Source of the DNA: Thermoanaerobaculia bacterium | GTDB lineage: Bacteria > Acidobacteriota > Thermoanaerobaculia > UBA5066 | DNA: 64,000 nucleotides | Assembly: GCA_963816185.1 (NCBI GenBank) | Contig: CAWFJJ010000007.1 | Span: 1-64,000 of the forward strand | Direction: 5' to 3' | Part shown: one piece after another, positions 1 through 17,229 of the stretch | How positions within the stretch are numbered: position 1 is the first letter of the stretch | Layout: every line of letters starts with the position of its first letter | Translations under genes and position numbers: made by a program | The notes under the pieces: model-generated | What the model was told of the DNA's origin: nothing | The model's database searches: none | Seen by the model: only the letters and a program-made list of their open reading frames with translations

Positions 1-230
1 TGCGCCTGAACCGCCCCGGAGCACTTTCTGTGCTGAGGGAAGCACACCCAGCGCAGCCAAGGCTCGCCTTTGAGTACTGTGTTGCCATCCACCTCCACTT
101 CGAACTGCCCGTAGGGACCGCCAACCACCTCGACCTCTACGTTCAGCTCGCGCCTCAACCGCGCCGCCACACGGACGGCGTGTAGCCGGGTCACTCAGTA
201 CGCGCACGAACGGATTCGAATCCGAGCCAT
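1..230 (-). CDS. Rdx (SelW/SelT/SelH) family selenoprotein, CxxU; 3' end runs off the window
   Basis: Manual translation from ATG 230 (SD AGGAGG at 235-240): MARIRIRSCAY-UGA(197-195)-VTRLHAVRVAARLRRELNVEVEVVGGPYGQFEVEVDGNTVLKG. The CxxU motif and G.FEV.VDG match the Rdx family. Probable 1-nt indel near 65. Confidence 0.8.
160..194 (-). promoter_or_regulatory. Putative bacterial SECIS hairpin
   Basis: Immediately 3' of the UGA: GCCG(U bulge)CC-[GUGU]-GG-CGGC, with a G-starting apical loop 22 nt after the UGA. An alternative 8-bp stem GCUACACG/CGUGUGGC is also possible. Confidence 0.55.
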
Positions 231-404
231 TCACCCTCCTATAAGAACGCCGACTCCGCCCGGCAACTCCCTTGTGTCCGCCTAACCATATCAACCTCAG
301 CGGCGAGCGTAGCGAGATGGGATGAGAAGGCCGGTCTCCCCGGCGCAGTCGGAAAATTCGCTGCAAGGACATTGCGGGCTCGAGGCCCAGAAGGGAGACC
401 GGCC

Positions 405-1572
405 GTGAGGAAGCGTAGCACCGGGACGAGCGGGAGCGAGAGGACGGCGACGAGGAGTGATGGGACGGCGAGATTGACGTCGGGCAAAGTGGTGAACGTC
501 CTTCCGGCTTTTTGTCCGACGTGGACCGTCGGAACGACCTGGGGGATCGGACGAGCCATTTTTGCGTGCTCGATGAAGATGGGATGGTCGTCGAGCGTGG
601 AAGGGCCCAGACGACTCTGGAAGGGATCCGGAAGCGTTTCGAAGGGCCGGTGGGAATGCGAATCGCGCTGGAGGTGGGAGCGCATTCCCCGTGGGTGAGC
701 CGCCTTCTGAAAGAGCTAGGGCACGAGGTGCTGGTGGCCAACCCCCGAAAGACCCGGCTGATCTACCAGAACCGTGGGAAGCAGGACCGTGTGGATGCCG
801 AGGCCCTGGCCCGGATCGCCCGGCTGGACCCGAAGCTTCTGTACCCCGTGGAGCACCGTCCCGAGAGCATTTCGCACAGGACATGGCCGTCCTGCGCTCG
901 CGCGATGTGCTGGTGAGGACGCGGACGCAGCTCGTCAACCACGTCCGCGGGGCGGTCAAAGCGACGGGACACCGCCTGAGGAAGTGCTCGACCCGGACGT
1001 TCTCCATCCAGGCGGTGGGCGAGATTCCCGAGGAGGTACGCGAAGCGTTGTCGAACGTCCTGACAACGATCGAAGTCGTGTCCAGACGGATCCTGGCGCT
1101 CGACAAGCGCATCTTAGAACTGGGGAAGAAGAAGTACCCGGAGACGGCGTTGCTGAGGCAGGTGGGAGGAGTGGGCCCGATCGTGGCGCTGGCCTACGTC
1201 CTGACGCTGGAGGATCCCGGGTCGATTCCGGAAGAGCCGGGCCGTCGGGGCGTACCTTGGGCTCGTACCTTCGCGAAGTCAGAGCGGTGATTCGGACCCG
1301 CAGCTGCGCATCACGAAGAGGGGGACCACTTCCTGCGCCGGCTTCTGGTTCAGTCGGCGCAGTACGTCCTCGGGCCATTCGGGCCGGACTGCGACCTCAG
1401 ACGATCCGGCCTGGCGCTGTCAGCCCGAGGAGAGCGCAATGCGAAGAAACGGGCGGTCATTGCCATGGCACGAAAACTCGCGGTGTTGCTGCATCGGCTG
1501 TGGCGGACCGCGGAGGTCTACGAGCCGCTACGCAAGGCCCCTGCGCCTCACGGCACGGCCGCAGCGGCCTGA
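405..1572 (+). pseudogene. IS110 recombinase/transposase (DEDD RuvC plus Ser domain), four frameshifts (~535, ~870, ~1220, ~1320)
   Basis: Segments DLGDRTSHFCVLD, IALEVG, KQDRVDAEALAR, GVGPIVA, AYLGLVPSRSQSG, ITK.GDHFLRRLL and AMARKLAVLLHRLW. Catalytic D/E/D/D and S are all present. Frameshifts may be sequencing errors. Confidence 0.9.
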
Positions 1573-1639
1573 CACAGGGCAAAAAAGAAAGGAACCAGCG
1601 AGAGGACGCGTTCAATCGTGGCTATCCCAAATTCGAGTC

Positions 1640-1810
1640 AACGCCCCGTGGGGGCGACTGCGCAGCGGACTCCGGTCCCCACGGACTTCGGCCCGGGGCG
1701 GAACACCGGTAGCGAGATTGCAGCGCCCTCCGGACTAGACCCCCTCATGCACCAGGCCGACAAGACGCGGCCCATACGAGTGCGAATGGAAGCGCGGCGA
1801 CACACTCGAG
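1640..1810 (+). ncRNA. Putative bridge/seek RNA of the IS1111 element (boundaries approximate)
   Basis: Stem 1652-1661/1720-1728 encloses internal-loop strands 1662-1671 and 1710-1719 that match the target flanks, with inner stem CCGGT/ACCGG. A second loop has CCCAT (1771-1775) and ATGGAAG (1786-1792), resembling the element ends. Confidence 0.7.
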
Positions 1811-1885
1811 CCCAGGGATTCCCACCGGCGATTCCGCCCTCTCTTGACAACAACCGGCCTTCTGCGTTGGAGATCCCGCTGCAGG

Positions 1886-2044
1886 GATGAAGTGGACTCC
1901 TCCTTTATGGCGTAAGACGGCATCGAGTGCCAACGTCACCGAGTCGGAGCTGAACCAAAAAGGAGGAGTCCATGGAGAATCCTACGACGATCGCCGTCGA
2001 CCCGCCCCTGCCGCTCGACGGCAAGCTCGAAAACACTCTTCGAC
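1886..2044 (+). mobile_element. Truncated left end of a second IS1111-type element
   Basis: gATGAAG-TGGACTCCTCC end, 14-bp IR 1893-1906/1959-1972 covering the SD, ATG 1972 MENPTTIAVD. The expected continuation SKSVFELAVERQGRV is on the opposite strand (2044-1996). Confidence 0.75.
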
Positions 2045-2193
2045 TTTGATAGCGCTCCTGGGATAAGCAAGAGAAGGCGCCCTTTCGGACGCCCTCCCGA
2101 GACGGGCGGGGCGGGCTGAGGGCCTGATTCGCCTCCCCATCTCATGACGCGCCAAGCCCGTGGCAACAAAAGTAGGGCGAAAACATGCGGAAA

Positions 2194-2386
2194 TCAACCA
2201 TCTCGACGGACCGAAGACGAGGTCGTCGTCGGGACCTTCGCGCCAGTCGAGCGCGTCATCGGCGCGCTGCTGCGCCACCTTGAAGCGGAAGTTGACGAGT
2301 TCCCGGGCCAAGAGAGCCGCGTGCGGGAGCGACCGGGCGGTCTTATGGTGGTCCGCCTGGAAGGGGACCCTGCGTCGAGCAGATCG
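2194..2386 (-). pseudogene. Remnant resembling the C-terminus of a phage terminase large subunit
   Basis: VPFQADHHKTARSLPHAALLARELVNFRFKV...WREGPDDDLVF resembles the C-terminal nuclease DD motif region. No N-terminus is present. Confidence 0.45.
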
Positions 2387-2389
2387 CCT

Positions 2390-2824
2390 TCACTGCACTT
2401 TCCTATCAGCCGCCGGCAGGGTCGGAAACGCAATGGAGTCCTCCGCGATCTTCTTGGCGAGCTCCATCACTGCATCGGGCGAAACACCGTACTCGATCGC
2501 GGCCCGGCGCGCGGCAGCTTCGAGATCGCCCGTGAGATCCATCTCACGACGGTCGCGCCACTCCTTCGGGCGCCGGTTCTTCAGCCAGAAGATCATCGCC
2601 GTCACGTCCTTGTCGACAGTCGCCTTCGTGTAGAGCGACTTGATGACAACCTCGTCCGCCTGTGCGCGGGCGTCATCGATGCGTTCCATCAGACCTGCGT
2701 CGGCCTCGATCCATCGACGAAGAGTCGAGCGGGGGATGCTGAGAATGCGCGCCGCGAGAGCCCAGTCGGCGCCCGCTGCAAATGCGCCCACCACGCGCTC
2801 GGCCTGCGACTCGGTGAGCGTCAT
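2390..2824 (-). CDS. Phage terminase small subunit-like HTH protein
   Basis: HTH (AARILSIPRSTLRRW) and DVTAMIFWLKNRRPKEWRD motif. ATG overlaps the stop of the upstream MTase (ATGA). Confidence 0.6.
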   Translation of the reverse strand: MTLTESQAERVVGAFAAGADWALAARILSIPRSTLRRWIEADAGLMERIDDARAQADEVVIKSLYTKATVDKDVTAMIFWLKNRRPKEWRDRREMDLTGDLEAAARRAAIEYGVSPDAVMELAKKIAEDSIAFPTLPAADRKVQ

Positions 2825-4082
2825 GCCGCGGCCTCGAGGACGGCCTTCTCGCCCGTGAAGCGCTCCCAACGCTGGACGCTACGTCAACGAAGATCGGGTC
2901 GATCTCCATCGCGAAACAGCGGCGGCCAGTCAGTTCCGCAGCGATGATTCCGGTCCCGATCCGCCGAAGGGCTCGTAGAAGAGGCCGCCCCTCGAGGTGG
3001 TTCTCGACGGCCTCGTGTAGAGGACGACCGGCTTCTGGGTCGGGTGGTCGACGCGCTCCTCCTGGCTTCCCGCCATGATCATCTTCGGGCTGCGGCCTTC
3101 CAGATCGTCGTCTGGTCACGCGCGCCGAGAAACGGCGGCGAGCCCTTCTTGCGGGCGTACCAGCAAGGCTCGTGCTGCCAGTGGTAGTGCTGGCGGCAGA
3201 GGACGAGCTGCTCCTTGTCCCAGATGATGTACTGCGAGAGCCGAAAGCCGATCCGCCGCAGGCCCAGTCCGACCTCGATCGTGAACGCGGACGCGTGCCA
3301 GACGTATGCGACGGTCAGGCTCGGCACGAGCTCGAAAGCTTCGCTCCAGTCCGCGCGCGTGTCGCCGCTGATCGAGTGTTCGCGTGGCCCTCTTTCCGCC
3401 TCATGCATGTAGCTCGGCTGCGCGGGGCCCATGCCGTTGAGGCCGGCGCGATCACGCCATTCCATGTCGAGCTCGACGCCGTACGGCGGGTCAGTCAGGA
3501 GCAGGAACGGCTCCTCTCCGTTCAAGAGCCGCGCGACGTCCGTCGCGTTCGTGCTGTCGCCACAGAGGAGCCGGTGCTTTCCGAGGACGTACAGGTCGCC
3601 GGGCTTCGAGACGGGCGTCTTCGGCGGCTCCGGCACGTCGTCGGGATCGACGCCTCGCGCCTCGCGCTTCATTCGAGCGACGAGCTCATCGATCTCGGCG
3701 CTTCCGAAGCCCGTGAGATCCAGAGCACTGGATCCGAGCTCCTCGAGAAGCGCGGCCAGCGCCGGCTCGTCCCACTCGCCCGAGATCCTGTTCAGCGCCA
3801 GGTTGAGCTGCCGCTCGCCGGTCTCGTCGAGGTCGACCCACACGACCGGCAGCGCTTCGATTCCTTCGGCTTCAGCGGCCTTGACGCGCTGGTGGCCGCC
3901 GACGATCCGGCCCGAGCGCCTGTTCGCCACGACGGGCTCCACGGCGCCGAACGTGCGCAAGCTGCGACGTAGCGCAGCAGCTGATCAGGCTCGATCCGAC
4001 GCGGGTTGTAGGGCGCGCCCATGTTGACCAGCTTCGCGACGGGGACGCTTTCGCTTTTTAGGGCATCCACGGCAGAAGCCAT
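2821..4082 (-). pseudogene. ParB-N-domain plus N4/N6 DNA methyltransferase (phage type), several frameshifts
   Basis: APYNPRRI, FGAVEP, IVGGHQR, LNLALNRISGEWD, HRLLCGDST, TDPPYG, HPTQKPV, YEPFGG.G, AMEIDP spread over several frames. Confidence 0.85.
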
Positions 4083-4265
4083 CAGCGAAAGTCTCGGACC
4101 GGGCATCGCGGCGCGCCATGACCCGCTATCTAGGCCTAGCAGAATCTCTCGTCACTGGTGGAAACGCACCGCGGATCGTTCCGCGGGCCTTCAACCTGAG
4201 GACCGTCTCGATCGTAAGGAGGCCTTTTCCGTCACACGCCGGGCGTTCGGTCTTCCGAGGTCGCT

Positions 4266-4729
4266 TTAGCTCGCCGAGGGAAGCCGGAGGCTTGCGGCTG
4301 TCGGCGCCCCATCGCCCTTCGCGGCCGCTTCGAATACGGCCCCGAGCGCCGAGGCGACGCCGCGGGCATCCATCATCTGGATCTCGTGCCGCTGGAGCAG
4401 GGAATGAGCTTGCCATCCCTCATGAGCCCGATCGAAGGCGACGAAGGCGCGTATCCGGCGAAGTACGCGCGCGCACGAGCGGTCGCCTCGACGTCCTGTC
4501 CGGCGAAAACTGTCACGAGCCGCTCCGGCCGCAGCGGGTGCTTGACCGCGAGCACGACGCCGGGACGCGCCTGGCCGGCGGCGCAGCCGCAGACCGAGTT
4601 CACGACGACGAGCGTGAGGCCCTTCTGGTTGACGGCGGCGTCCACTTCGGGCGCCGTGTGAAGCTCGGTGAACCCCGCCCGCGTCAGCTCGTCGCGGAAA
4701 GGCTGGATGCTCTGCGGGTCGTAGGGCAT
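4266..4729 (-). CDS. BrxA/BrxB (YphP/YqiW) bacilliredoxin family, frameshift near 4405
   Basis: MPYDP..FRDEL..AGFTEL..LVVVNSVCGCAAGQARPG...TVFAGQDVEATARAR...PSSPSIGLMRDG, with the CGC motif. SD AGGAG upstream. Confidence 0.88.
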
Positions 4730-4797
4730 GGGACTCCTTATTTCGCAGCCTGGAGCGGGGCGAGATCCGCGAGCACGCCGTAGTTGTGCGCAGACGG

Positions 4798-5332
4798 GTG
4801 CTGTCGCCACAGAGGAGTCGGTGCTTCCCGAGAATGTACAGGTCGCCGCGCTTCGAGACGGGCGTCTTCGGCGGCTCCGGCACGTCGTCGGGATCGACGC
4901 CTCGCGCCTCGCGCTTCATGTCGCGCGATGAGCTCGTCGACCTCGGCGCTCCCGAAACCCGTGAGATCCAGGGACTGGATCCGAGCTCCTCGAGCAGGGC
5001 GGCGAGCGACGGCTCGTCCGACTGGCCCGAGATCCTGTTCAGCGCCAGGTTGAGCTGCTGCTCGCCGGTCTCGTCGAGGTCGACCCACACGACCGGCAGC
5101 GTTTCGATCCCCTCCGCTTCAGCGGCCTTCACGCGCTGATGGCCGCCGACGATCCGGCCGGAGCGCTTGTTCGCCACGACAGGCTCGACCGCGCCGAACG
5201 TGCGCAGACTCTTTGGGAGCGCGAGGAGCTGGTCCGTCGGCAATCCGACGCGGGTTGTAAGGAGCAGCGCATACCGAGCAGCGTCGCGACCGGCACGCTC
5301 TCACTGTTTAGGGACGTCGGGGCGGGAGCCAT
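4798..5332 (-). pseudogene. Second, truncated ParB-MTase copy (ends at LLCGDST)
   Basis: Near-identical peptide to the 5' half of 2821-4082, frameshifted and lacking the catalytic domain. Confidence 0.85.
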
Positions 5333-5731
5333 TCATGGAAGTTTCGGGCCAAGTGATCGCGCCGCAACAGCTCCCACTATTTAGCCCTTGTGGAATCTCG
5401 AGCGGTGGATACGCGCCGCGAATCGTTCCGCGGTCCTTAAATGAGGAGCGCCTCGATCGTGAGGAGGCCTTTCCCGCACTGCTCGGCACCTCCGTCGCCG
5501 GACGATTCCCTCCTCAGCGTGGAGGTCTCGACCACCCAGAGCTGGAGCGAGCCGCAGGCCGCGACACCAGACGCCGGCCTCGGTGCGGGAAGGGTCGTCT
5601 GTTAGAGGCGCTCGTCTGTCACGGGGCACCTGTGGCGGAAGCGCCCCTTAAAGAGGCTAGGAGCGGGACCGATCATCCTCGCCATAGCGGGGGTCCTGCG
5701 TGGTGTTTCGGGAAGACCTCGCAGCGACCGG

Positions 5732-5753
5732 GTGTCCGTGTTGTGTCCGTGTT
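5732..5753. repeat. Perfect 11-bp tandem repeat GTGTCCGTGTT x2
   Basis: Read directly from the sequence; ~100 bp beyond the tmRNA 3' end. Confidence 0.9.
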
Positions 5754-5854
5754 CTCCCGGACACTAGGCCGAATAGGCGGCAGAGGAGGACCCCCCCGGA
5801 GGGGCCTAAACCTTTGGGTTTTGGCCCTCCAGGGGAGTCCAGTGCAGGCAAGAA

Positions 5855-6215
5855 TGGTGGAGGCGGGGGGAGTCGAACCCCCGTCCGAAGCGCCCGAACG
5901 TCGAGATTCTCCACGCTCAGTCCGGACTTGTTTTTTTAGCCGCCGCGTCTTCAGGTCCGGACGACCGGGCGCGGCAGCGAACCTGAAACTCTCGGGACGC
6001 CTCTTCAGGTGGCGGAGGCGGCCCCAGCCCGGATTTCGCGTCAAACGCCGAGGCGCCCCGGACAGGCTCCCCGGCGCCCGTCACGGCTAATTAGGCCGCG
6101 AGAGCGAGGTCGCTGTTGTTGGCAGCTGGTTGTTGACCGTCGTTTTTACGAGCGAACGGCCGTGCTCGGCGTGCTCCTCGATCGCTGAATGCCCCGTCGA
6201 AACCGGGACGCCCCC
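5855..6215 (-). ncRNA. ssrA: tmRNA; tag (A)ANNSDLALAA* at 6123-6091
   Basis: 5' GGGGGCG pairs with 3' CGCCTCC-ACCA including G3:U, T-arm GGTTCGACTCC, 361 nt, tag ending ALAA. Confidence 0.97.
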
Positions 6216-6284
6216 AATCGTGGTTGGCGAGGATATCAGAACCACGGGGCGGCCATCCAGCCGGAGAATCGCCATAATCCGAGG

Positions 6285-7820
6285 GTGAGCCGACACGCGC
6301 CGCTCCCTTCCTGTGCCGCCGTGGCCGCACTGTTTCTGGCCGCGGCCGCCGCCCGCGGAGAGGACGTGACGGCGACGTTCTCCCGTCCAGACAAGCCTCC
6401 GGTGAGCCTTCGCGCAGAGGAACGCGACGGCCGGACGTACCTTTCCGTGAACGACGCCGTCACCGCGCTCGACGGCTCGATGACCCTCGACGACAAGACC
6501 CGGTCGTACGAAGTGAAGCTCAAGGGGCGCTCGGCGGTCTTCGGCCTGGACGCCGCCCTCGCGGTCGTGGACACGAAGCTCGTCTCCCTGAGCGCACCCG
6601 TGCGGGGCCACGGCGCCCTCGCGTGGGCGGAGCCGGAATTCTTCCAGAAGGTCATCGGGCCGATGGCGGGGCTCTTCCTTTCGTGGGATCGCGCGACCCG
6701 GACGCTGTCCGTCCGCAGGTCCGAAATCGCCGAGATCACCGTCGAGTCGTCGGTGGCCGACCTCGGCGAGACGACGAAGGTCGTCCTGCGCTTCTCGCAG
6801 GCGCCGTCGTACGCCGTCGAGAAGGCCGCCGATCAGGTCATCCTCCACGTCCCGAATGCGCGACTCGTGATGCTGCCTTCGGAGAAGCTCCTCGAGTCGG
6901 CGCGTGTCGCGCGCCTCGTCGTCAGGGGCGGCGACATCTCGATCGTGTTCCGGGAAAAAGACCTCGTGCCGAACGTCTATGCGCTCGGAACGCCGCCGCG
7001 TCTCATCGTGGACATCGCGAAGGCGGGCTCGCCGACGGCTAACGGAGCACGTCCCGCTCCTCCCGTGCCGGGGCCGCCGCCGCCGGCGCCGAGGCCGAAG
7101 ACCATCGTCCTCGATCCCGGGCACGGAGGCGTCGAGGAGGGCGCGAAAGGGCCCGGCGGCCTCCTCGAGAAGGACGCCACTCTCGCGCTCACGAAGACGA
7201 TCCAGGAAGTCCTCCAGCGCCGCGGGTACCGCGTCGTGACGACACGCCTCTCCGATGCCACGGTCGGCCTCGACGACCGTGCCGCGCAGGCGAACGCGGC
7301 GAAAGCCGATGTCTTTATCTCGATTCACTGCAACGCGTCGCGGTCCCCCACCGCGCACGGGACGGAGGTGTATTACCTGTCGCTGGACGCCTCGGACCGC
7401 GCCGCGGCTCTTCTCGCCGAGAGCGAGAACGCGACGCCAGCCGGGACCCCGGACTCGGCCGAGAAGAACGCGGCCGCGCGCGATCTCGACCTGATCCTCT
7501 GGGACCTCGCTCAGAACCAGCACCTCTCGGCGTCTGAGCGGCTCGCGGAGATCGTCCAGGCCGACTTCAACCGGCTGCTCGGAATCACGACGCGCGGCGT
7601 GAAGCAGGCGCCGTTCCGCGTCCTCGTCGGCGTCAATGCGCCGGCCGTCCTCGTGGAGGTCGCCTTCATCACGAACCCTGACGAGGAGATACGGATCGGG
7701 TCGGACGAGTTCCGGCGCCAGGCTGCGGAAACGCTCGCGGGAAGCCTCGACACGTATTTCCGCACGGCGGATGCCGTGGCGCCCGTGCCCTACGCGCCGA
7801 AAGCGCCCGGCAAGAGCTGA
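6285..7820 (+). CDS. N-acetylmuramoyl-L-alanine amidase (Amidase_3) with N-terminal copper-amine-oxidase-like/AMIN domains
   Basis: Signal peptide, IVLDPGHGG..E, FISIHCNA, PAVLVEVAFITN. Confidence 0.92.
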   Translation: MSRHAPLPSCAAVAALFLAAAAARGEDVTATFSRPDKPPVSLRAEERDGRTYLSVNDAVTALDGSMTLDDKTRSYEVKLKGRSAVFGLDAALAVVDTKLVSLSAPVRGHGALAWAEPEFFQKVIGPMAGLFLSWDRATRTLSVRRSEIAEITVESSVADLGETTKVVLRFSQAPSYAVEKAADQVILHVPNARLVMLPSEKLLESARVARLVVRGGDISIVFREKDLVPNVYALGTPPRLIVDIAKAGSPTANGARPAPPVPGPPPPAPRPKTIVLDPGHGGVEEGAKGPGGLLEKDATLALTKTIQEVLQRRGYRVVTTRLSDATVGLDDRAAQANAAKADVFISIHCNASRSPTAHGTEVYYLSLDASDRAAALLAESENATPAGTPDSAEKNAAARDLDLILWDLAQNQHLSASERLAEIVQADFNRLLGITTRGVKQAPFRVLVGVNAPAVLVEVAFITNPDEEIRIGSDEFRRQAAETLAGSLDTYFRTADAVAPVPYAPKAPGKS

Positions 7821-7833
7821 ATACAGCCGCCGC

Positions 7834-8574
7834 ATGCCGCGCCGCTTCGCCCTCGCGCTCGTCGTCCTGCTCCTTCTGCTTCTCTCGGCCCTTCTCCTCG
7901 GGCGCCGCATGAGAGGGCCGTCGCGAGCCGCCGCCGTCGTCCCCACGCTTCGACCGACGGCGGTGATTCCCCCGACCCCCATCCCGGCCCGGCAGGTTTC
8001 GCTCTACTTCGAATCTCCTGCCGACGATCAGCTCCACCCGGAGGCGCGGGACGTTCCCGCGGCGGTCGACGACGTGGCGTTCCTCAGGTCCGTCGCCGCC
8101 GCCGTAATGGACGGGCCGCGTCGCCAGGACCTCGTGAAACCGTTCCCCGAGGGCTGGTCCCTGCGCGGCGCGTATCTTCTGGGCGACGGAATCGCCGTCA
8201 TCGATCTTTCCCCGCCGCCTCTTCCGGCGCCGCGCGAGCCCGGAACGCCCGCGGGACCGCGCTGGCAGGCTGGCTCCCACGAAGAGGACACGGCGATTCA
8301 GTCGCTCGCGGTCACCCTCGCGAAGAACCTCCCCGCGGTGACGCGCGTCGTGCTCCTCGTCGCGGGAGAGGCGGCCGAGACGCTCGGCGGCCACGCGGAT
8401 CTCCTGCATCCGATCGCGCCCGATCTCAAACGCGCCGCCGATGAACCGCCGCTCCCGGCTCCGACCGCAACGCCTTTGCCCGCCGCTTCGCCCTCGCCGG
8501 CCGCGCCCTCGCCCGCCCCTTCCGCCGCGGTTCCGCCCGTTCCGCGCCGACGCGTGCCGGTCGAGCAAACATGA
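7834..8574 (+). CDS. GerMN domain protein
   Basis: N-terminal TM, VSLYF...L.PE.R, GSHEEDTAIQSLAVTL...V.LLVAG...TLGGH; located between amidase and murI. Confidence 0.8.
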   Translation: MPRRFALALVVLLLLLLSALLLGRRMRGPSRAAAVVPTLRPTAVIPPTPIPARQVSLYFESPADDQLHPEARDVPAAVDDVAFLRSVAAAVMDGPRRQDLVKPFPEGWSLRGAYLLGDGIAVIDLSPPPLPAPREPGTPAGPRWQAGSHEEDTAIQSLAVTLAKNLPAVTRVVLLVAGEAAETLGGHADLLHPIAPDLKRAADEPPLPAPTATPLPAASPSPAAPSPAPSAAVPPVPRRRVPVEQT

Positions 8575-9392
8575 GCGACCCACGTCCGATCGGCCTCTTC
8601 GACTCCGGAGTCGGAGGCCTCACGGTGCTCGAAGCCGTTGCGCGGCGGATGCCGTTCGAGGACCTTCTCTACCTCGGCGACACGGCGCGGTTGCCGTACG
8701 GCACGAAGTCGCCCGAAACGGTGCGGCGCTACGCACGCCGCGCGATCGGCTTCCTGCTTTCGCAGGGCGTCAAGGCCGTCGTCGTGGCCTGCAACACGGC
8801 CTCGGCGCTCGCGCTCGACGTCATCGAGGACATGTCGGCCGTCCCGGTCGTGGGCGTCGTCGCTCCCGGCGCCGAGGCCGCGGTCGCCGCGGCGCGGGCC
8901 TCGGATGCGGGCGGCGTGTCGGGGCCCATCGCGGTTCTCGCGACCGAAGCCACCGTCGCGTCCGACGCCTACGGCCGCGCCATCCGCGCGCTCGATCCGG
9001 GACGGAAAGTGGTGCACACGGCCTGCCCGCTCTTCGTGCCGCTCGCCGAGGAGGGCTGGACGGAGAACGAGGTCGCGCGCTCGGCCGCGGCGCGCTATCT
9101 CGCGGACGTCCCCCGCGCGGGCGTGCGCGTCGTCGTCCTCGGGTGCACGCACTATCCGCTCCTGACGCGGACGATCGCGGGCGCTCTCCCGCGGGACACG
9201 ATTCTCGTGAACTCCGCGGAGACGACGGCGCGCGCCGTCGAAGCGGCCCTGCTTCCCGCGTCGCGCCGGGACGAAGCCTCGCACGGGACGACGCGCCTCC
9301 TCGTGACCGATGCGTCCGAGCGCCTGCGCCGCGTGGCGGGGCGGTTTCTCGGCCGGCCGGCCGCGGACCTGACGCTCGTGGATCTCCCTTAG
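8571..9392 (+). CDS. murI: Glutamate racemase
   Basis: IGLFDSGVGGLTV, ACNTA, LGCTHYP. Confidence 0.97.
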   Translation: MSDPRPIGLFDSGVGGLTVLEAVARRMPFEDLLYLGDTARLPYGTKSPETVRRYARRAIGFLLSQGVKAVVVACNTASALALDVIEDMSAVPVVGVVAPGAEAAVAAARASDAGGVSGPIAVLATEATVASDAYGRAIRALDPGRKVVHTACPLFVPLAEEGWTENEVARSAAARYLADVPRAGVRVVVLGCTHYPLLTRTIAGALPRDTILVNSAETTARAVEAALLPASRRDEASHGTTRLLVTDASERLRRVAGRFLGRPAADLTLVDLP

Positions 9393-9411
9393 CGGCCGGC
9401 TTAGCGGCCGG
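9388..9411. repeat. 12-bp tandem duplication CTTAGCGGCCGG x2 at the murI stop
   Basis: Read directly from the sequence. Confidence 0.85.
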
Positions 9412-9436
9412 AGCCCCGTTGCGCCAGAATCCGGCC

Positions 9437-10307
9437 GTGGATTCGATGACGTCCGCCTCCGCACGGCCCTCCGCGTCCCGACGGCCGGGGCCCTCTCGAC
9501 CTCCGGCCCGTGACGATCGTCTGCGATGCCGTGTCGCACGCGGAAGGCTCCTGTCTCGTGACGCAGGGGCGCACGCAGGTCCTCGTGACGGCCTCGGTCG
9601 AGGCGAAAGTCCCGCCGTTCCTGCAGCGGACCGGTCTCGGATGGGTGACGGCCGAATACGGGATGCTGCCGCGCGCCACGCTCGAGAGGAGCCCCCGCGA
9701 AGCGGCGCGCGGCCGGCAGTCCGGGAGGACGCTGGAGATCCAGCGCCTCATCGGGCGGGCGCTGCGCGGCGTCGTGGACCGCTCGCGGCTCGCCGACCGC
9801 ACGCTCACGCTCGACTGCGACGTTCTCGTCGCCGACGCCGGAACCCGCTGCGCCTCCGTCACGGGCGCGTACGTCGCGCTCGCGCTCGCCTGCGCGTCCC
9901 TCGCGAAAGCGGGCGACCTCCGGGCGAACCCCCTGCGCGAGGCCGTCGCCGCCGTCTCCCTCGGCCTCCAACAGGGGCGCGTCCTCCTCGACCTCGACTA
10001 TGCCGAGGATTCGACGGCCGACGTGGACCTGAACGTCGTCGGGACGTCGAGCGGGCGGTTCGTCGAGATCCAGGGCACCGCCGAGCGCGAGCCGTTCGAC
10101 GAGGAGCAGCTCGCCAGGCTGCTCGCGGCAGGCCGCAAAGGGCTCGCGGCGCTTTTCGCGGCGCAGCACTCCGCGCTCCTCGGCCGGCTTCCCGAGGAAT
10201 GGCTCGACGCGCTGGCCCCCTCCGCGCTCGCGGCGCGGGCTCAGGCGTCCGCGAAGAAGGCGCGAAGAGTCGTCGCGAGGCGCGGAGGATCTTCCAGAAG
10301 GGCGTAA
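9437..10307 (+). CDS. rph: Ribonuclease PH (apparent 5' indel; ORF track starts at 9510)
   Basis: [54 protein letters not shown]. Confidence 0.95.
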
Positions 10308-11002
10308 TGCCCGATCCCGGGCTGCTCGAGAAATGTCGCGTCTTTTCGTGCCGAGAGGATCGCGCGCAGCTCCTCGGCTGGCGCGAGCGGGTCGCGCGCG
10401 CCGGTCACGAGAAGGAGCGGCATCGACGTCCCCCTGAGTCGTTCCGCGAGCGGCCGGGCGGCGAGGACGCCGTCGACGAGCTTCTCGACGGCCAGGACGA
10501 CCTCTTCACGCCGGGGCCCCGTCCGCGCGGCGACCGTCCGCGCGACGAAGCCCGCGCGGCCGGGCCCGTCCACCGCGAAGCCGTAGCCCGCGGCGTTTCT
10601 CAGCGAGCTCTCGGGCACGCTCGCGATGACCGCGCGCCGGGACATCGCGATCCACTTGAGGCGGTCGGTGAGGCCGTACGGCGCGGACCCGAGCGGGGAG
10701 ACGAGCGCGAGGGCGCTGACCCTCTCGGGCGCGAGCGCTGCGACCTCACCGGCGACGCGCCCGCCGAGCGAGTGCCCCGCGAGGAGGACGGGCTCCGCTC
10801 CGAGCTCGCCGAGGACCCAGCGCGCGAGCGGCTCCATCTCGTAGCCGGTTCCGGGACCCGGACCGCGGACCGAGCCCGGGAGGTCGAGCGCGCGCACGGC
10901 GAAGTCCTTTTCGAGGAGCTTCGCGACCTCCTTCCAGTCCTCGGACGAACCGCCGAGGCCATGCAGCAGAACGAGCGTTTCCTTCGACTTCTTCGCGGCC
11001 AT
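10241..11002 (-). CDS. Alpha/beta fold hydrolase
   Basis: LLHGLGG, GHSLGG nucleophile elbow, G..D and GH catalytic motifs. Confidence 0.9.
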
Positions 11003-11021
11003 CGCTCAGAATCCTACCGGA

Positions 11022-11096
11022 CGGGGTGTGGCGCAGTGGTAGCGCACCTGCTTTGGGAGCAGGGGGTCGGCGGTTCGATCCCGCCCACCCCGACCA
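11022..11096 (+). tRNA. tRNA-Pro(TGG)
   Basis: CGGGGTG/CACCCCG-ACCA acceptor stem, anticodon arm CCTGC-TTTGGGA-GCAGG, GGTTCGATCC T-arm. Confidence 0.97.
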
Positions 11097-11112
11097 ATGT
11101 TTTCGATAGGTC

Positions 11113-11944
11113 CTAAAAGAGGCCTTCAGGGGCGAGTTCGCGAAGGCGGCCTACTGGCTTCACCGCCACAAAGTTGCTGGTGGTCCCGTGCAACTTGTCG
11201 TCCACCGCAATGGTCATGCTCTTGCCGTCAGCAGCCACTGTTATGCGTGCGACGCTGATCACTTTCCCATCCCGCTTGTCGGTTTCCTCGATCGTGTTCT
11301 TGTCCACCTTCTTGAGCGATAGGCTGGTCGTACCCGGGTCGCCCTTGTACGGCGCCTCCGTCCCATCCAGCTTCGCGGTATAGCCTTGTCCGGTCGGGGT
11401 GCTCATGCTCAAGGTATCGCCTTCCACCTTGTAGGTGAACGTCAGCCCGTTGTCCGAGACGGAATCCATCTTCGAGGTTCGCCAGGAACCCGAGATGGCG
11501 TGCGACCCCGCAGGGCCCTTGGCCACTCGCGTCGATTCACCTTTGCCGGTGACCGGAGCGGCGTTGGTGGCGCTGTCTGTCCGTGAATTCGAACATCATC
11601 GTGTTTCCGTCGGCCGAGACCCAGGTTTTCGAAAGTCACGACGGTTTTCCATTCTTCTTGTCGGTTTCCTCGATCGTGCGAGCGTCGACGACCTTGATGC
11701 TCACCATGTCGTAGTACGGATGCCCTGACACCTTCTGGTCCTTCCCATCCGCCTTGACGTCGACCGGCGGAACGCACGTCTTGCAGTGGTACATCCCGTC
11801 CTGCAACAGGAAGACATCGGGCTTCGTCGGGAATTTCGCCGACTTCAAGTCCACCTTCCACGTCCCGTCGAAAACACTCTGCGCCATTGCCATCGCGGGC
11901 ATCAACAGTGAGGCGATCAATAGAAACCACCGAGTAGTTTTCAT
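11113..11944 (-). pseudogene. Secreted two-repeat beta-rich hypothetical protein, frameshifted near 11580-11640
   Basis: SD plus signal peptide MKTTRWFLL..., internal repeat GTWK/GSWR and TIEETDKKNGK/TIEETDKRDGK. Confidence 0.7.
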
Positions 11945-12034
11945 CACTCGTCCTCCATCTGAGCCGTGACCGGAATTTAAGATTTCAACGTCATCTTTGC
12001 CCGAAAGCATAGGGGGGCGGATAGCGCCGAACTG

Positions 12035-12355
12035 TTACGGCATCGGCTTGAGGTTGACCTCGCGGAGGTAACGCGTTCCGACGGCATCGCGCATCGCGAA
12101 GCGCGGGGAAATCATTTCCTGCTGCTTGCCTTCGTCCTTCGTCTTGAACTGCTTCTCGGCGATGGCCTTTCTCTTGTCGTCGTCCCCCTGGTTGAAGTCC
12201 AGGGCCTTGCCGAAGCTGGGGTAGAGCGTCGCGATCGCGATGTCCCAGTCTTTTTCATCACGCGGGGTGTTGAGGAGGAACTTCGTGTCGAGGATGAGGC
12301 CCTGCTTTTTCGCCTCGCCCGCGGAAACGAGGTAGGTCGAGCGCAGGTACTTCAT
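12035..12355 (-). pseudogene. Hypothetical protein, apparently 5'-truncated
   Basis: DDYMKYLR...EAKKQGLILD.K...DWDI; coding-like codon usage; the upstream part breaks off near 12400. Confidence 0.55.
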
Positions 12356-12469
12356 GTAGTCGTCGAGGACTTGCGCGGGAAACTGTCGTCCGGGTCGTAA
12401 CTGACGCCCTGACGGGTCCAGATGAGGTCTATCCGATCACCGCCCAGCGGTCCGGCGGAGGAGGACGCG

Positions 12470-12755
12470 ATGAGCAAGGTAACGAAGAAGACGTATTCCA
12501 GAGTCGCCGAACTCGAGAAGAACTTCGCGAAAGAGGCCGCTTGGGCGGATGCACGATATGGCCCCCACGTGCCTCGGCTGACCGAACCCGGGAGACCTCG
12601 GAAGGGAGCGAACGTGGAGAAGACTCAGCCGCACTCATCCGCGTGCCGGACAGGGTATGACGCTCTCGCTCATGAAGAAGGCGAAGACGCGAGGCCTCAG
12701 CACGAATGCGGCCCTGCAACTGGCCGCCATGGAATGGCTCCAGCGCGACCGCTGA
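12470..12755 (+). pseudogene. Ribbon-helix-helix antitoxin-like gene (BrnA/CopG-like), frameshifted
   Basis: SD GGAGGA. Reconstructed MSKVTKK...PGRPRKG....PHS.RVPD...SLMKKAKTRGLSTNAALQLAAMEWL*. Preceded by a VYPITA fragment typical of BrnT-like toxin ends. Confidence 0.55.
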
Positions 12756-12770
12756 TCGGCGAAAAACTCC

Positions 12771-13553
12771 TCAGCCAACGAGCTGCGCGACGGCGGACGG
12801 AGGAAGCGCGCCGGTCACCTCGCGAATCGCGGGCCCCGTGACCGAGACGTCGTCGGAGATGACGCTCGCGGCGCCCTGGCGCGCGAGGTGCGCGGCGAGC
12901 GCGGGGTCGTTCACCGTCCAGACGTGTACCGAGACGCCCTCGGCCCTTGCGCGCTCAAAGAGCGGGTCCGAGACGAGCGCCACGTTCGGTCCGATGGCGG
13001 CGCAGCCCTTGGGAAGATCGGGCCAGAGCCGCCCTTCGGGCCGGTGCGCCGTGCCGTCGTAGTTGAGGCACGTCGCGACATTGGGCTCGATCTCCCGGAT
13101 GCGGCGCAGCGCGTCGGGCGAGAAGGAGAGCACGACGGCTTTTTCGAGGAGCGCGAGCTGCGCGAGGAGAGCCGCGACACGGAACTCGAGAAGAGAGGGG
13201 CGCGGCGAAGGCCCCGGCTTCAGCTCGACGAGGTAGCGTCCCGAAGGTCCGTACCTCAGGAAGACGTCGCGCAGCGTCGGGACGAGCCCCCGAAACTCGC
13301 CGCGCACGATGGGGGTCTCGTTGAGCTCGGGGATCGTGAGCGTCGCGAGCGGGACCCGCCGGCCCGAGAAGACGATCTCGGCGTCATGGTGTACGACGGC
13401 TTCGCCGTCCAGCGTGAGCCGCACGTCGAGCTCGAACGCATCGGCGCCGTCCGCCTCGGCGCGGTCGAAGCTCTCGAAAGTGTTTTCGAGCGCCTTCGTC
13501 GGAGAGCCGCGGTGCCCGACGACGCGCGTGGGAGAAGCCTCGAAGAAGTTCAT
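12771..13553 (-). CDS. Glycerophosphodiester phosphodiesterase
   Basis: VGHRG..ENT..SF, ELDVRLTLDG..VVHHD, VELK, VWTVND, VISD. Confidence 0.93.
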   Translation of the reverse strand: MNFFEASPTRVVGHRGSPTKALENTFESFDRAEADGADAFELDVRLTLDGEAVVHHDAEIVFSGRRVPLATLTIPELNETPIVRGEFRGLVPTLRDVFLRYGPSGRYLVELKPGPSPRPSLLEFRVAALLAQLALLEKAVVLSFSPDALRRIREIEPNVATCLNYDGTAHRPEGRLWPDLPKGCAAIGPNVALVSDPLFERARAEGVSVHVWTVNDPALAAHLARQGAASVISDDVSVTGPAIREVTGALPPSAVAQLVG

Positions 13554-13578
13554 GCCGGCTGGATTATCCTCGCGGTGC

Positions 13579-14592
13579 ATGTCGCAATCCTTACGAGGGC
13601 GGCCGGCGGGCGTCGTGCGCCGCCGGCGCGCGGCGCGACCCCTCCCCGAGGGGCCGTTTGCCGTCCCGCTGTCGACGATCGACTGGCTCGTCTCCCGCGA
13701 GAGCCCGGCGGCGCGCTACGTGGCCCTTCGCGACCTTCTCGGCCGGCCGACGAAGGATCCCGACCTCAAGAGGGCCAAGCAGGCGTTTCCGCGCGAGCCG
13801 TTCGTGCGCGAGGTGCTCGCGCTTCTCCGCGCACGGCTCGCGCCGGGCGCGGGAGCGGCGGCGCTCGAGCGTCGCTACGACGGCGGGGTCTGGCTCGCGC
13901 TCTTTCTGACGGAGGTGGGCGCGGACGGCGCGCTGCTTCAGCTTCACCACGCGGGCGACGTCCTTCTGGCACGCTGGGAGAAGACGCTCGTCGCGATCGA
14001 GCGACACGAGGACGCCGACCTCGACGCCGCCCTGTTTCGCGCGGCCCTCCGCGTCCTTCTGCGGATCGGATGGGAGCGCGATGCGCGCGTCCTCGAAGGC
14101 GCCGACGCTCTCGCAGCGCGCGCGCTCGCTGGGCGCGGCCGGACGGAAAAAGACCTTCTGCTCTTTGCGTCGCTGCCCGCCGACGTGAGAAGCGAGCGCG
14201 TCTCGAGGGCCATTTCATTCCTGTCGACCCGGCTGCTCGAAGCCGAGCTGCCGGCCGCGCTGGCCCCCGGCGCGCCGGAGGAGCTCCTCATGCCCGGCTT
14301 CCCGTGCGGCGACGAGACGGACCTCGTCGAAATGCTCTTCGCGCTCGCCTCCGTGCTTCCCGCCGAGTCCCGCCGCGAACCGGTTCTGTCCCGCGCCCTC
14401 GCGCGGCTCGCCGAGCGCGCCGATCACCGCGCGCGCTGGACGCTCGAGCGGCCGCGGCCCGAGCGTCTTCCCGTCGCCCTCGAGCGCACCGGTGAGCTCT
14501 CGCGGTGGGTCACGCTCCGCGCGCTCGCCATCCTGCAGCGCTTCCACGGCCTCGAGGTGCTCGGCACGCCTCCGCCGAGGAGGCGCGCGTGA
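13579..14592 (+). CDS. Hypothetical protein, alpha/alpha-toroid (prenyltransferase/cyclase-like) family
   Basis: IDWLV...PAARY.ALRDLL, GFP...TDLVE.L.AL, RW.LE...E..G..SRWVTLRAL. Confidence 0.6.
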   Translation: MSQSLRGRPAGVVRRRRAARPLPEGPFAVPLSTIDWLVSRESPAARYVALRDLLGRPTKDPDLKRAKQAFPREPFVREVLALLRARLAPGAGAAALERRYDGGVWLALFLTEVGADGALLQLHHAGDVLLARWEKTLVAIERHEDADLDAALFRAALRVLLRIGWERDARVLEGADALAARALAGRGRTEKDLLLFASLPADVRSERVSRAISFLSTRLLEAELPAALAPGAPEELLMPGFPCGDETDLVEMLFALASVLPAESRREPVLSRALARLAERADHRARWTLERPRPERLPVALERTGELSRWVTLRALAILQRFHGLEVLGTPPPRRRA

Positions 14593-15219
14593 GGCGAGCG
14601 TTGTCTTTTCTTCTCGGGGTCTTCCTGATGCTCCTTCCGGGATGCGCAGCCGATCCCTTCGGCGCGCCGCTCAGGGTGAAGACCCACGGCTACCGCGCGC
14701 GCGTGACGCTCAAGAGCGACGGAGTCGAGAAGGCGGCATTCGACATCGCCGTACTCCGGAACTTCAGGCGCAAGGGGCCGGAGGACGGCCCGGCGCTCGT
14801 GCTCGACATGGACGCCCGCGTGGCGTTCCGGCTCGATCCCGCGGCGAAGACGGTCCGGAACGTTCCTTTTTCGGAGGCGGTGGGCGAGCTCCCCGGAGGG
14901 ATTCCGCTCGCTCCGGGATTCGACGAGAAAGCCGAAGCCGTGCGGCGGAACGTCAGCGTCTACCATCGCGAAGGCGACGAAGTGTTCGCGGGACACGTAT
15001 GCGCGCTCTGGCGCTTCGACGACGATCCCGACAGAGCCCGGGTCCCCGACGACGACCTATTGGGTGGCCAAGGATCTGGACGGCCTCGTGACGCGGTACG
15101 ACCGCGAAGCGACCGACGCGAACGGCAAGACGCGGAAATCCAGCGTGAGCCTCACGAACGTGCGGGTGGGAGCGGATCCCGGACTCTTCTCCATTCCGAG
15201 CGGCTGGACCCGGCTCTGA
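14589..15219 (+). CDS. Putative lipoprotein (DUF4412-like), frameshift near 15030
   Basis: LLPGC lipobox, GDEVFAGHVC..W, TYWVAKDLDG, DPGLFSIPSGW*. The ORF-track fusion to the next gene is an artefact. Confidence 0.6.
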
Positions 15220-15329
15220 ACGGGCCCCGGTCCTTGATGTTGCGGTCCGGTTCTTGCTGGTATCCTCCCGGATCCGTAACGCCGCCAGGCGGACGGGACG
15301 TTCAGCTTGCAAGGAGCGCGCATTCCGCT

Positions 15330-16208
15330 ATGAACACCGCGAACCCGAGTCTCTCCCGTCTCGTGAAGACCCTCGTCGCGGGTCTTGCTCTCGTACTCGT
15401 CGGGCCTCTCGCAGCGCAGACGGCGACGCCGAAGGATCCGAAATCGCCCGTGCCGGGCTTCGCGGACGGGCGCGGCCCGACGGGCCCGGTCACGCTCAAG
15501 ATCGTCTCTCCGGCCGCGGATGAAATCATCCCGGTTCCACAGCCGGCGGCCGGTCAGCCTCCCGCGAAGGGCGCTCCGGTCACGCTCAAGGTGGAGCTTG
15601 CGAACTTCGAGACGTTCCAGGACGACGCCACCAAGAGCGGGCAGCACCTCGAGATCCTCGTCGACAACATCGGCGTCCTGTTCCCGTGGCACGATGCGAC
15701 GAAGCCGTACACGTTCAAGAGCCTTCCGAGGGGCACGCACACCGTCAGGATCTTTCCGGTGAGGCCGTGGGGCGAGGCCATCAAAGATCCTTCCGCATTC
15801 GCGATGGTCACCTTCCACGTCGGGGAGAAGGACGGCAAGAACACGATCGAGCCGGGGTCGCCGGTTCTCACGGTCGCCTCGCCGCGCGGCAAGATGAAGA
15901 GCGAGGGCGGCAAGGTTCTCCTCGACGTCCTCGTCACGGGATGCCCGGTCGCCGAAGCGTCCGTGCCGGACTCGTGCCGCCTGCGCTACAAGGTCGACAC
16001 GCAGCCCGAGGTGACGCTGACGAAGGCCGAGCCTGTGTGGCTCGAGAAGCTCACCCCCGGCCGGCACGCGTACGTCGTGGGTCTCACGCGCGGCCAGAAG
16101 GTGGTCCCCGGCGCGTTCGCGCTCTACCAGGGCTCCTTCGAGGTGGAGAACGGGACGAACCCCGCGGCGCCGGGCTCGGCTCCTCCCGCGAAGGCCACGG
16201 GCCAGTAA
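15330..16208 (+). CDS. Secreted hypothetical protein with Ig-like domains
   Basis: Signal peptide, GQHLEILVDN, GTHTVRIFPVRPWGE. Confidence 0.7.
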   Translation: MNTANPSLSRLVKTLVAGLALVLVGPLAAQTATPKDPKSPVPGFADGRGPTGPVTLKIVSPAADEIIPVPQPAAGQPPAKGAPVTLKVELANFETFQDDATKSGQHLEILVDNIGVLFPWHDATKPYTFKSLPRGTHTVRIFPVRPWGEAIKDPSAFAMVTFHVGEKDGKNTIEPGSPVLTVASPRGKMKSEGGKVLLDVLVTGCPVAEASVPDSCRLRYKVDTQPEVTLTKAEPVWLEKLTPGRHAYVVGLTRGQKVVPGAFALYQGSFEVENGTNPAAPGSAPPAKATGQ

Positions 16209-16218
16209 AATTCCCGGC

Positions 16219-17229
16219 ATGTCCCTCGTTTACGGCGGCGCCGGGACGCGTCCCTGCGCCGTCGACCCGCCGCTGATCCTTGCCCCGATGGCCGGAATCA
16301 CGGACATGACCTACCGCCTTCTCCTCAGGCGCATCGGGGGCGTGGGCCTCGTGACGATGGAATTCGTCTCGTCCGAGGGGCTGACGCGTGGAAACCAAAA
16401 GACGCAGAGGCTGCTTCGCTTCGATCCCTTAGAACGCCCGCTTTCTGTCCAGATTTACGGAGCGGACGCCGCCAGAATGCAGGTCGCTGCGGAACGCGTC
16501 GAGGAGATGGGTGTCGATGTCTGCGACATCAACATGGGCTGCCCAGCGAACAAGGTTCTGAAGGGCTGTGCGGGGGCGGGCCTCATGCGCGATCTCGGGA
16601 GGGCGAGGGAAATCATCGCGGCTTGCCGGAAAGCGCTGAAGACGACGCCTCTCACGGTGAAGTTCCGGCTCGGCGTGACGGACGAGACGGTGAATTACCT
16701 CGAGCTGGGCCGACTCTGCGAAGGCGAGGGCGCCGCGGCCGTCGCGCTCCATGCGCGAACGGCGAAGCAGATGTACACGGGCCGCGCCGACTGGCGATAT
16801 ATCGCGCGTCTCAAGGAGGCCGTGAAGATTCCCGTCGTGGGAAACGGGGACGTCGCGACGCCGGAGGATGTCGTCGCGATGTTCCGCGAAACCGGCTGCG
16901 ACGCCGTGATGTGCGGCCGCGCGACGATGAAGAATCCGTGGATCTTCAAGCAGGCCGCGGACCTTCTCCAGGGCCGGCCGTACCGCGAGGCGACGCTCGC
17001 CGAGCGGCGCGACGTGATCCTCGACCACTTCCGGCTCATCCAGAGGGACGATGCCGACGCGCCCAAGGCGGTCATGGCGAAGCTCCGTACGTTCACGGGC
17101 TGGTATACGCACGGCCTGCCGAACGGGGGCGAGCTGCGCCGCCGCATCGCTTCGCTCGACGGCCCGCAAGCCTTTCTCGACGCCGTCGAGGACTTCTTCG
17201 CGGACCACGCCGCCCGCGCGGCGGCGTGA
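16219..17229 (+). CDS. dusB: tRNA-dihydrouridine synthase B
   Basis: LAPMAGITD, DINMGCP, HART..Q.Y.G.ADW, GNGDV, VMCGR...NPW. Confidence 0.93.
   Translation: MSLVYGGAGTRPCAVDPPLILAPMAGITDMTYRLLLRRIGGVGLVTMEFVSSEGLTRGNQKTQRLLRFDPLERPLSVQIYGADAARMQVAAERVEEMGVDVCDINMGCPANKVLKGCAGAGLMRDLGRAREIIAACRKALKTTPLTVKFRLGVTDETVNYLELGRLCEGEGAAAVALHARTAKQMYTGRADWRYIARLKEAVKIPVVGNGDVATPEDVVAMFRETGCDAVMCGRATMKNPWIFKQAADLLQGRPYREATLAERRDVILDHFRLIQRDDADAPKAVMAKLRTFTGWYTHGLPNGGELRRRIASLDGPQAFLDAVEDFFADHAARAAA

Follow-up and report, generated by a model that had tools for sequence, protein, structure and literature searches.

The window analysed here, which covers contig C7 from its first base to position 64,000, carries at its very beginning a short gene on the minus strand in which an in-frame UGA, as the comparison of homologous sequences strongly supports, is read as selenocysteine, and which is probably the cargo of an integron cassette. 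That a selenoprotein is encoded here on a cassette, with the two small indels seen in its frame being errors of the consensus, is the reading we consider likely. According to it, the product of the gene starting at position 230 would have about 81 residues, a thioredoxin-like fold and the active site Cys-Ala-Tyr-Sec, and would belong to a divergent branch of the Rdx/SelW family. A short hairpin within the reading frame would recruit SelB with Sec-tRNA(Sec) at the UGA, and the selA, selB, selD and tRNA-Sec genes of the host would supply the decoding; the product would most likely be a small selenol/thiol oxidoreductase. As a cassette the gene would begin inside the R' core of a preceding attC site, its 49-nt leader would contain a ribosome-binding site and lack a recognisable promoter, and an attC of its own should close it just past the end of the contig. 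The preceding attC would later have been split by an attC-targeting element of the IS1111 family.

An earlier note, made from the sequence alone, had pointed to a strong Shine-Dalgarno site, an ATG at 230 and an in-frame CAY-UGA on the minus strand, and to a GTTAGGC about 50 nt upstream of the ATG. All of these can be read directly in the sequence, and the observation is thus confirmed. By direct translation the minus-strand frame is open from the ATG at 230-228 to window base 3. Eleven codons lead from the ATG to the in-frame TGA at 197-195, the last three of them encoding Cys-Ala-Tyr, and 49 nt separate the ATG from the GTTAGGC at 286-280. The features of the gene are the following:

1 to 230, minus strand: predicted Rdx/SelW-like selenoprotein gene, 76 codons from the ATG at 230, cut by the contig end
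240 to 234, minus strand: Shine-Dalgarno site AGGAGGG, 3 nt before the ATG, read directly
206 to 195, minus strand: CxxU redox motif, with Cys at 206-204, Ala, Tyr and the UGA (Sec) at 197-195
182 to 160, minus strand: predicted SECIS-like hairpin, from an RNAalifold consensus of 69 sequences
18 to 65, minus strand: out-of-frame stretch, with one base missing near 64-65 and one extra near 18

The assembly (G000; 5.09 Mb in 30 contigs, 94.9% complete) has the first base of contig C7 as window base 1, and for this reason the last codons of the gene and all sequence downstream of it are absent and a closing attC is not seen. The edge lies about 20 nt, or about 6 codons, short of the stop codon. 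A public contig of one sequencing run (X2), 1,167 nt in length, goes 855 nt past window base 1 and adds 6 codons followed by TAG, a continuation which agrees with the C-terminus of a database protein (P0003). Neither a second copy of the gene nor an overlapping contig end was found in the whole assembly, none of the other contig ends showed the closing attC, window 1-600 yielded no promoter-like site, and window 1-2500 had no match in Rfam.

The TGA itself is unchanged in the contigs of all four public runs that cover 195-197, so TGC or TGT in its place was not seen in independent assemblies. It is also kept throughout the family. For the comparison 80 metagenome loci and 6 loci from metagenome-assembled genomes (MAGs) were fetched, one of which (L122) has no motif, while four (L070, L074, L088, L096) are incomplete or have too little sequence before the UGA. 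The 85 related loci gave 71 unique homologous sequences, and all 71 have a TGA at the CxxU position, with no Cys form among them, which answers the question whether homologues have Cys or Sec there. When the DNA of 60 relatives' genomes was read directly, eight of these genomes gave a match, including 4 of 28 genomes of the same genus, and each of the eight matches has exactly one in-frame TGA, located after Cys-x-x. In 66 full-length homologues Cys and U of the motif are invariant.

A database search returned 48 homologous proteins, none of them with a Pfam label. With one exception they begin directly after the position of the TGA or further downstream (47 of 48), which bears out the expectation that gene callers miss the gene. 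The exception is P0002, an 81-residue metagenome protein and the only entry to cover the UGA position, where it shows W; either TGA was called there with a TGA=Trp code or it is a true TGG variant. The start of nearly all database entries right after the TGA could be taken to mean that the UGA is a plain stop and that the product is an ORF of 64 or more residues from the GTG which directly follows it. This is extremely improbable: the eleven codons upstream of the UGA are conserved together with their ATG and the Cys of the CxxU motif, the predicted fold, which matches SelW-related structures from end to end, includes the first strand and the CxxU turn, the hairpin is held at synonymous sites, and the machinery for selenocysteine is present. 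On the preferred reading, selenium would actually be inserted into the protein at this codon.

The SECIS-like hairpin which the earlier note had placed just after the UGA does exist. The consensus has a core stem of 180-174 paired with 168-162 around a 5-nt loop at 173-169, an additional outer pair of 182 with 160, and its core begins 15 nt 3' of the UGA. All 69 sequences retain the six core pairs. The adjoining pair is retained in 64 of them, with four double changes, for which Fisher's test gives p = 0.02, a value to be read with the restriction that the sequences are related and not independent. Synonymous sites are frozen in this region: at the four-fold codons +6, +7, +9, +10, and +11 after the UGA a single codon accounts for 0.97, 0.97, 1.00, 1.00, and 0.89 of the sequences, compared to about 0.34-0.59 at the other four-fold codons of the gene. 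The apical loop of 5 nt reads CGUGU in 42, CGGGU in 25, and AGGGU in 2 of the 69 sequences. [quoted passage not shown] Folding of the single sequence gave an unremarkable energy (z = -0.59), and it is the comparison across 69 sequences, not the single-sequence fold, on which the hairpin is taken as real.

The genome has what is needed to decode such a UGA. Searches for selA, selB, and selD gave 431.6, 289.8, and 339.8 bits, respectively, all above the curated cut-offs, and ARAGORN found two tRNA-Sec genes (C14:29774-29872 and C24:155246-155344). All five MAGs carrying the gene have selA, which is split in one of them, as have 27 of the 28 same-genus genomes. This distribution is consistent with the idea that the gene would function only in hosts competent for selenocysteine. 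The selD gene of the host (C8:374020) is itself a selenoprotein gene; its frame contains a TGA, after which comes a hairpin of 9 bp with a loop of 3 nt.

The readthrough protein had been expected to belong to the Rdx/SelW family. Rdx is indeed the Pfam family which it matches (PF10262, E = 5.8e-4), and the predicted fold is of the SelW type; the score of 20.5 bits lies under the cut-off of 22.6. The NCBIfam SelT/SelW/SelH model matched with E = 5.9e-8 and 32.9 bits at a cut-off of 88. Rdx was the top Pfam family for six of six full-length homologues as well, one of which exceeded the cut-off with 26.3 bits, and the NCBIfam matches of the full-length homologues were all below the cut-off. A profile of 66 homologues searched against the sequences of the PDB had 2fa8, 2ojl, and 2oka as three of its four matches, with weak E values of 0.038-1.6. 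An AlphaFold2 model was calculated for the closest intact relative (L037, 86% identical) and had a mean pLDDT of 85; it consists of a strand, a helix, three strands, and helices. With this model Foldseek counted 21 PDB matches at E <= 0.001, those listed being all SelW-related or Rdx. TM scores to SelW-related and Rdx entries were 0.73-0.81, and mouse SelW ranked next.

In common with the solved proteins of the Rdx/SelW family (PF10262; 2fa8, 2ojl, 2p0g, 2oka, 2obk, 3dex) the window protein has a CxxU motif directly after the first beta strand, here C-A-Y-U, the succession of strand, helix, three strands, and helix, and a size of about 80 residues. It is divergent in sequence, its identity to the solved proteins being 20-27%, has a C-terminal motif G-x-L-P-S, and belongs to a group most members of which stay under the Pfam and NCBIfam cut-offs. 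It therefore represents a divergent new subfamily of the known Rdx/SelW family. According to two papers (PMC1088965, PMC1794560), SelW-like CxxU selenoproteins are known from bacteria, where they are abundant and Cys forms are few. A plasmid collection contained no relative of the protein. In a Pfam scan of 115 of the 125 listed neighbour ORFs of the related loci (10 were left out) the neighbours proved to be diverse without a constant partner, so that the genomic context gives no clue to the function. With the conserved TGA, the hairpin and its frozen synonymous sites, the selenocysteine machinery of the host, and the predicted Rdx/SelW fold, the proposal of a hidden selenoprotein holds.

The window copy of the gene has two indels of 1 nt each, judged against five of five aligned homologues, which have neither. 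As a consequence 15 codons are out of frame, after which the frame is restored. If both indels were real, the conserved G-x-L-P-S segment would be lost and the window copy would be dead, that is, a pseudogene. For this speaks that the indels stand in the assembled sequence, are seen in none of the aligned homologues and affect residues which vary little or not at all among 48 and among 66 homologues. Against it, a public contig of another run (X1) is without both indels and otherwise has no mismatch over window 1-207, the contig of X2 is likewise without both, and that of a third run (X3) is without the one at 18, which it covers. The return to the correct frame after 15 codons and five more indels in the neighbouring 1.5-kb insertion sequence, whose 99% identical twin elsewhere in the genome is intact, also argue for consensus error at the contig end. 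We therefore regard a pseudogene as improbable, and the two indels are most likely errors of the consensus at a poorly supported contig end, as far as can be judged from the available contigs. Window 1-1875 has seven indels in total compared to independent copies, two in the Rdx gene and five in the insertion sequence; the consensus appears unreliable here at the contig end, and the same cause may have broken further frames in the vicinity.

Upstream of the gene the following features were recognised:

278 to 314, minus strand: 3' half of an attC site (L'-R') with the R' core GTTAGGC at 286-280, identified by nhmmer, alignment to intact sites and ORF orientation
[quoted passage not shown]
1876 to 1884, plus strand: 9-nt remnant of the 5' inner arm of the attC, identified by comparison of two right flanks of the insertion sequence, with no R'' core next to it

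The GTTAGGC 7-mer alone is at chance level, with one occurrence seen versus 2.1 expected in the 64-kb window. The stretch around it is an attC half: window 279-317 recurs in the genome, and its copies are imperfect palindromes of 60 nt bounded by RYYYAAC and GTTRRRY. When searched with a profile of this repeat, window 316-278 (39 nt) matched profile positions 34-72 with a genome-wide E of 1.7e-7, the last bases of the match overlapping letters which the half-site has in common with the end of the insertion sequence. The profile, made from 13 copies, detected 36 attC-type sites (E < 1e-3) in the genome, which group into at least eight clusters:

C2:7534-10073, attC cluster, profile search
C12:10665-11228, attC cluster, profile search
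C24:335379-338918, attC cluster, profile search
C24:514321-515022, attC cluster, profile search
C24:732110-740759, attC cluster, profile search
C25:603987-611963, attC cluster, profile search
C28:276168-279180, attC cluster, profile search
C29:450940-456127, attC cluster, profile search
C30:571150-573663, attC cluster, profile search

In four arrays (on C29, C25, C24, and C2) the sites are about 500-650 nt apart, and the ORFs between them are co-oriented with the attC and start after R'. The Rdx gene has the same orientation to its half-site as the cassette ORFs of these arrays, and the boundary of the cassette falls inside R'. The sites fold into imperfect hairpins with inverse cores, and on the strand opposite to the ORFs the 3' arm shows single-base bulges. 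This is also the arm which bears the extrahelical bases in a canonical attC. An arm-length rule for attC orientation gave the wrong direction and was dropped in favour of ORF orientation and bulge positions. A detector using inverse cores and fold energy was unspecific, with 70 matches versus 32 in shuffled loci, and was kept for the choice of seeds only.

A covariance model (R1) was then available from 7 sites of the genome and 10 metagenome sites; it sees one family of attC. On the window it gave only a weak match at 278-377 (16.9 bits, E = 0.51) and detected no further attC within the 64 kb. No integron integrase above the cut-off was found in this 94.9%-complete assembly. Such an integrase gene (intI) is present above the cut-off in 20 of the 28 same-genus genomes, and in five of the nine intI loci searched the covariance model found the same type of attC adjoining intI and co-oriented with it. 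The proposal that GTTAGGC is an integron core site is substantiated by its position at the R' end of the half attC and by the occurrence of this attC family beside intI. In five loci (L135 from G011, L136 from G019, L137 from G008, L131, and L124) intI runs in the same direction as the array, which lies 3' of it. This co-directed arrangement, seen in this genus and in one Gemmatimonadales MAG, is inverted compared to the usual divergent one.

The covariance model was run over the 85 related loci, the window, and 4 same-genus loci. Of the 85 related loci, 15 have an attC adjoining the gene, in every case on the gene's strand; the number is a lower bound, as many contigs are short and the model recognises a single attC family. 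A downstream attC was found in nine loci (L041, L042, L047, L064, L068, L085, L101, L102, L119), the distance from the stop codon in relatives being about 15-135 nt, and five (L042, L047, L068, L085, L101) have an attC on both sides of the gene; L085 is an array of at least 10 attC sites. The cassettes of the relatives are about 415-610 nt long. Among the cassette loci homology extends from R' of the upstream attC to the gene's own attC in L041 and L042, and in the others to the contig end or close to the stop codon; the upstream cassettes differ in L039, L042, L043, L046, and L118. Bounded homology with differing upstream neighbours is characteristic of a unit that has been inserted into different arrays. 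One MAG labelled Acidobacteriota and one labelled Gemmatimonadales contain two of the attC-linked loci, and each of these MAGs has intI above the cut-off. In the Gemmatimonadales MAG the Rdx cassette is followed, about 1.8 kb downstream, by an integron-integrase fragment that has a TGA inside (L119:4993-5352, corresponding to C8:31590-31949 of G062), and this genome has several more integrase fragments.

With the cassettes of chromosomal integrons and attC clusters without integrase the window gene shares the single short ORF after an R' core GTTRRRY. Like known cassettes its relatives end in an imperfect-hairpin attC with bulges on one arm, and their loci, like known integrons, are arrays of diverse small genes. 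Unlike in known integron cassettes, the cargo needs recoding of UGA and carries the recoding signal inside its ORF, and different from known integrons are also the co-direction of intI and array in this genus and the lack of a detected intI in the genome studied.

An ordinary chromosomal selenoprotein gene which merely stands beside a lone attC-like target of an insertion sequence has to be weighed against the cassette. It would be consistent with the chance-level frequency of the 7-mer and with the fact that the covariance model recognised no attC at the closest sequence relatives (L037, L038, L067, and L117; 77-86% identity), of which that in L067 comes after an efflux-pump gene, nor at the same-genus homologues, which have about 50% identity and are chromosomal genes. 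Yet the half-site matches 39 nt of the attC profile, and orientation and spacing are those of a cassette start, the gene beginning 49 nt past R' compared to 61-156 nt in 11 related loci with an upstream attC. The gene is moreover patchy in the genus (4 of 28 genomes) and a bounded cassette in other loci. A purely chromosomal gene is thus quite improbable, and the cassette reading, as far as the sequence comparison goes, is supported for the gene family and probable for the window copy.

The element that interrupts the upstream attC has a 13-bp subterminal inverted repeat at 322-334 and, truncated, at 1854-1863, with terminal extensions of 7 nt and 3 nt. Its transposase frame is broken by the five indels and its right end has diverged. 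The second copy, located on contig C24, is 99% identical and has an intact frame of 425 codons which matches DEDD_Tnp_IS110 and Transposase_20. Both copies (2 of 2) sit at one fixed point of an attC, without target duplication. These features match the description of attC-targeting IS1111 elements in PMC11187229. A DEDD transposase, subterminal repeats, and a fixed target in attC are common to the window element and the IS1111-attC group (ISKpn4 and ISPst6 types); in contrast to that group the window element is a new one in a soil bacterium, with a diverged right end and broken frames. Its last approximately 12 bases carry a cluster of substitutions at the junction compared to the C24 copy, and what follows past the junction is no attC half, which suggests a rearrangement or a second type of target.

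With its attC split by the insertion sequence, the R'' core missing, and no other attC in the window, the gene as assembled can be no more than the leading cassette of a stranded cluster. It may thus be a true selenoprotein gene of cassette origin which is now an immobile remnant, cut off by the activity of insertion sequences in an attC cluster without integrase. That no intI above the cut-off was found in the genome, that the R'' side of the upstream attC is lost and no other attC follows in the window, and that the attC sites are scattered over at least 8 clusters, many of them adjoining copies of insertion sequences, are in favour of this. On the other hand the assembly is 94.9% complete and intI of relatives is often located at contig ends, so that intI may be unassembled, and the array may extend past the contig end. 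The immobile remnant, which we regard as rather unlikely, differs from the preferred reading, a gene on a cassette, solely in its present-day mobility, and that the window copy is mobile today we infer. Of the earlier proposal of a mobile cassette, the half attC in the right orientation and the complete cassettes of relatives have stood; an intI was not found, and the closing attC was not seen.

SelW-like selenoproteins and integron cassettes are both known kinds, and their combination is a modest conceptual twist. A report of a selenoprotein cassette was not found in the full-text literature searched, a scope that leaves most subscription journals outside. Cassettes are usually seen as plug-in genes, and a selenoprotein cassette would work only where UGA is recoded. 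The present case would mean that selenoprotein genes can be cassette cargo and that cassette surveys miss them: since gene callers cut the ORF at the UGA, such cassettes are hidden in the catalogues. A wider idea, for which the chances appear about evenly balanced, is that a self-contained recoding module, readable in any host competent for selenocysteine, is being spread by the integrons of soil bacteria. The gene adjoins attC sites in MAGs labelled Gemmatimonadales and Acidobacteriota, and a homologue outside a cassette occurs in a Candidatus Eisenbacteria MAG. If true, part of the selenoproteome would be traded in the form of cassettes. The SECIS hairpin is nearly invariant (69 sequences) in loci from MAGs of three labelled phyla, and selenoprotein cassettes would be a direct test of how portable the recognition of a bacterial SECIS by SelB is.

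Some minor observations concern the surroundings of the gene and the other attC sites. A prophage at window 2390-16220 is not supported, as the ORFs there give only weak helix-turn-helix and ParB_N matches and one alpha/beta hydrolase. The part at 2390-5243, in which weak helix-turn-helix and ParB N-terminal matches occur, is not cassette-like and by eye includes a methyltransferase-like stretch with apparently broken frames. Elsewhere in the genome a second element appears to be located at the R' end of attC sites (C24:734045-735175 and C2:6564-7325), with an ORF that by eye resembles an IS110-type transposase. The flank of this element is seen at five sites (C2:7539, C24:336991, C24:735389, C25:609922, and C25:611904), and at C24:336991 a single attC carries both the second element and one of the IS1111 type.
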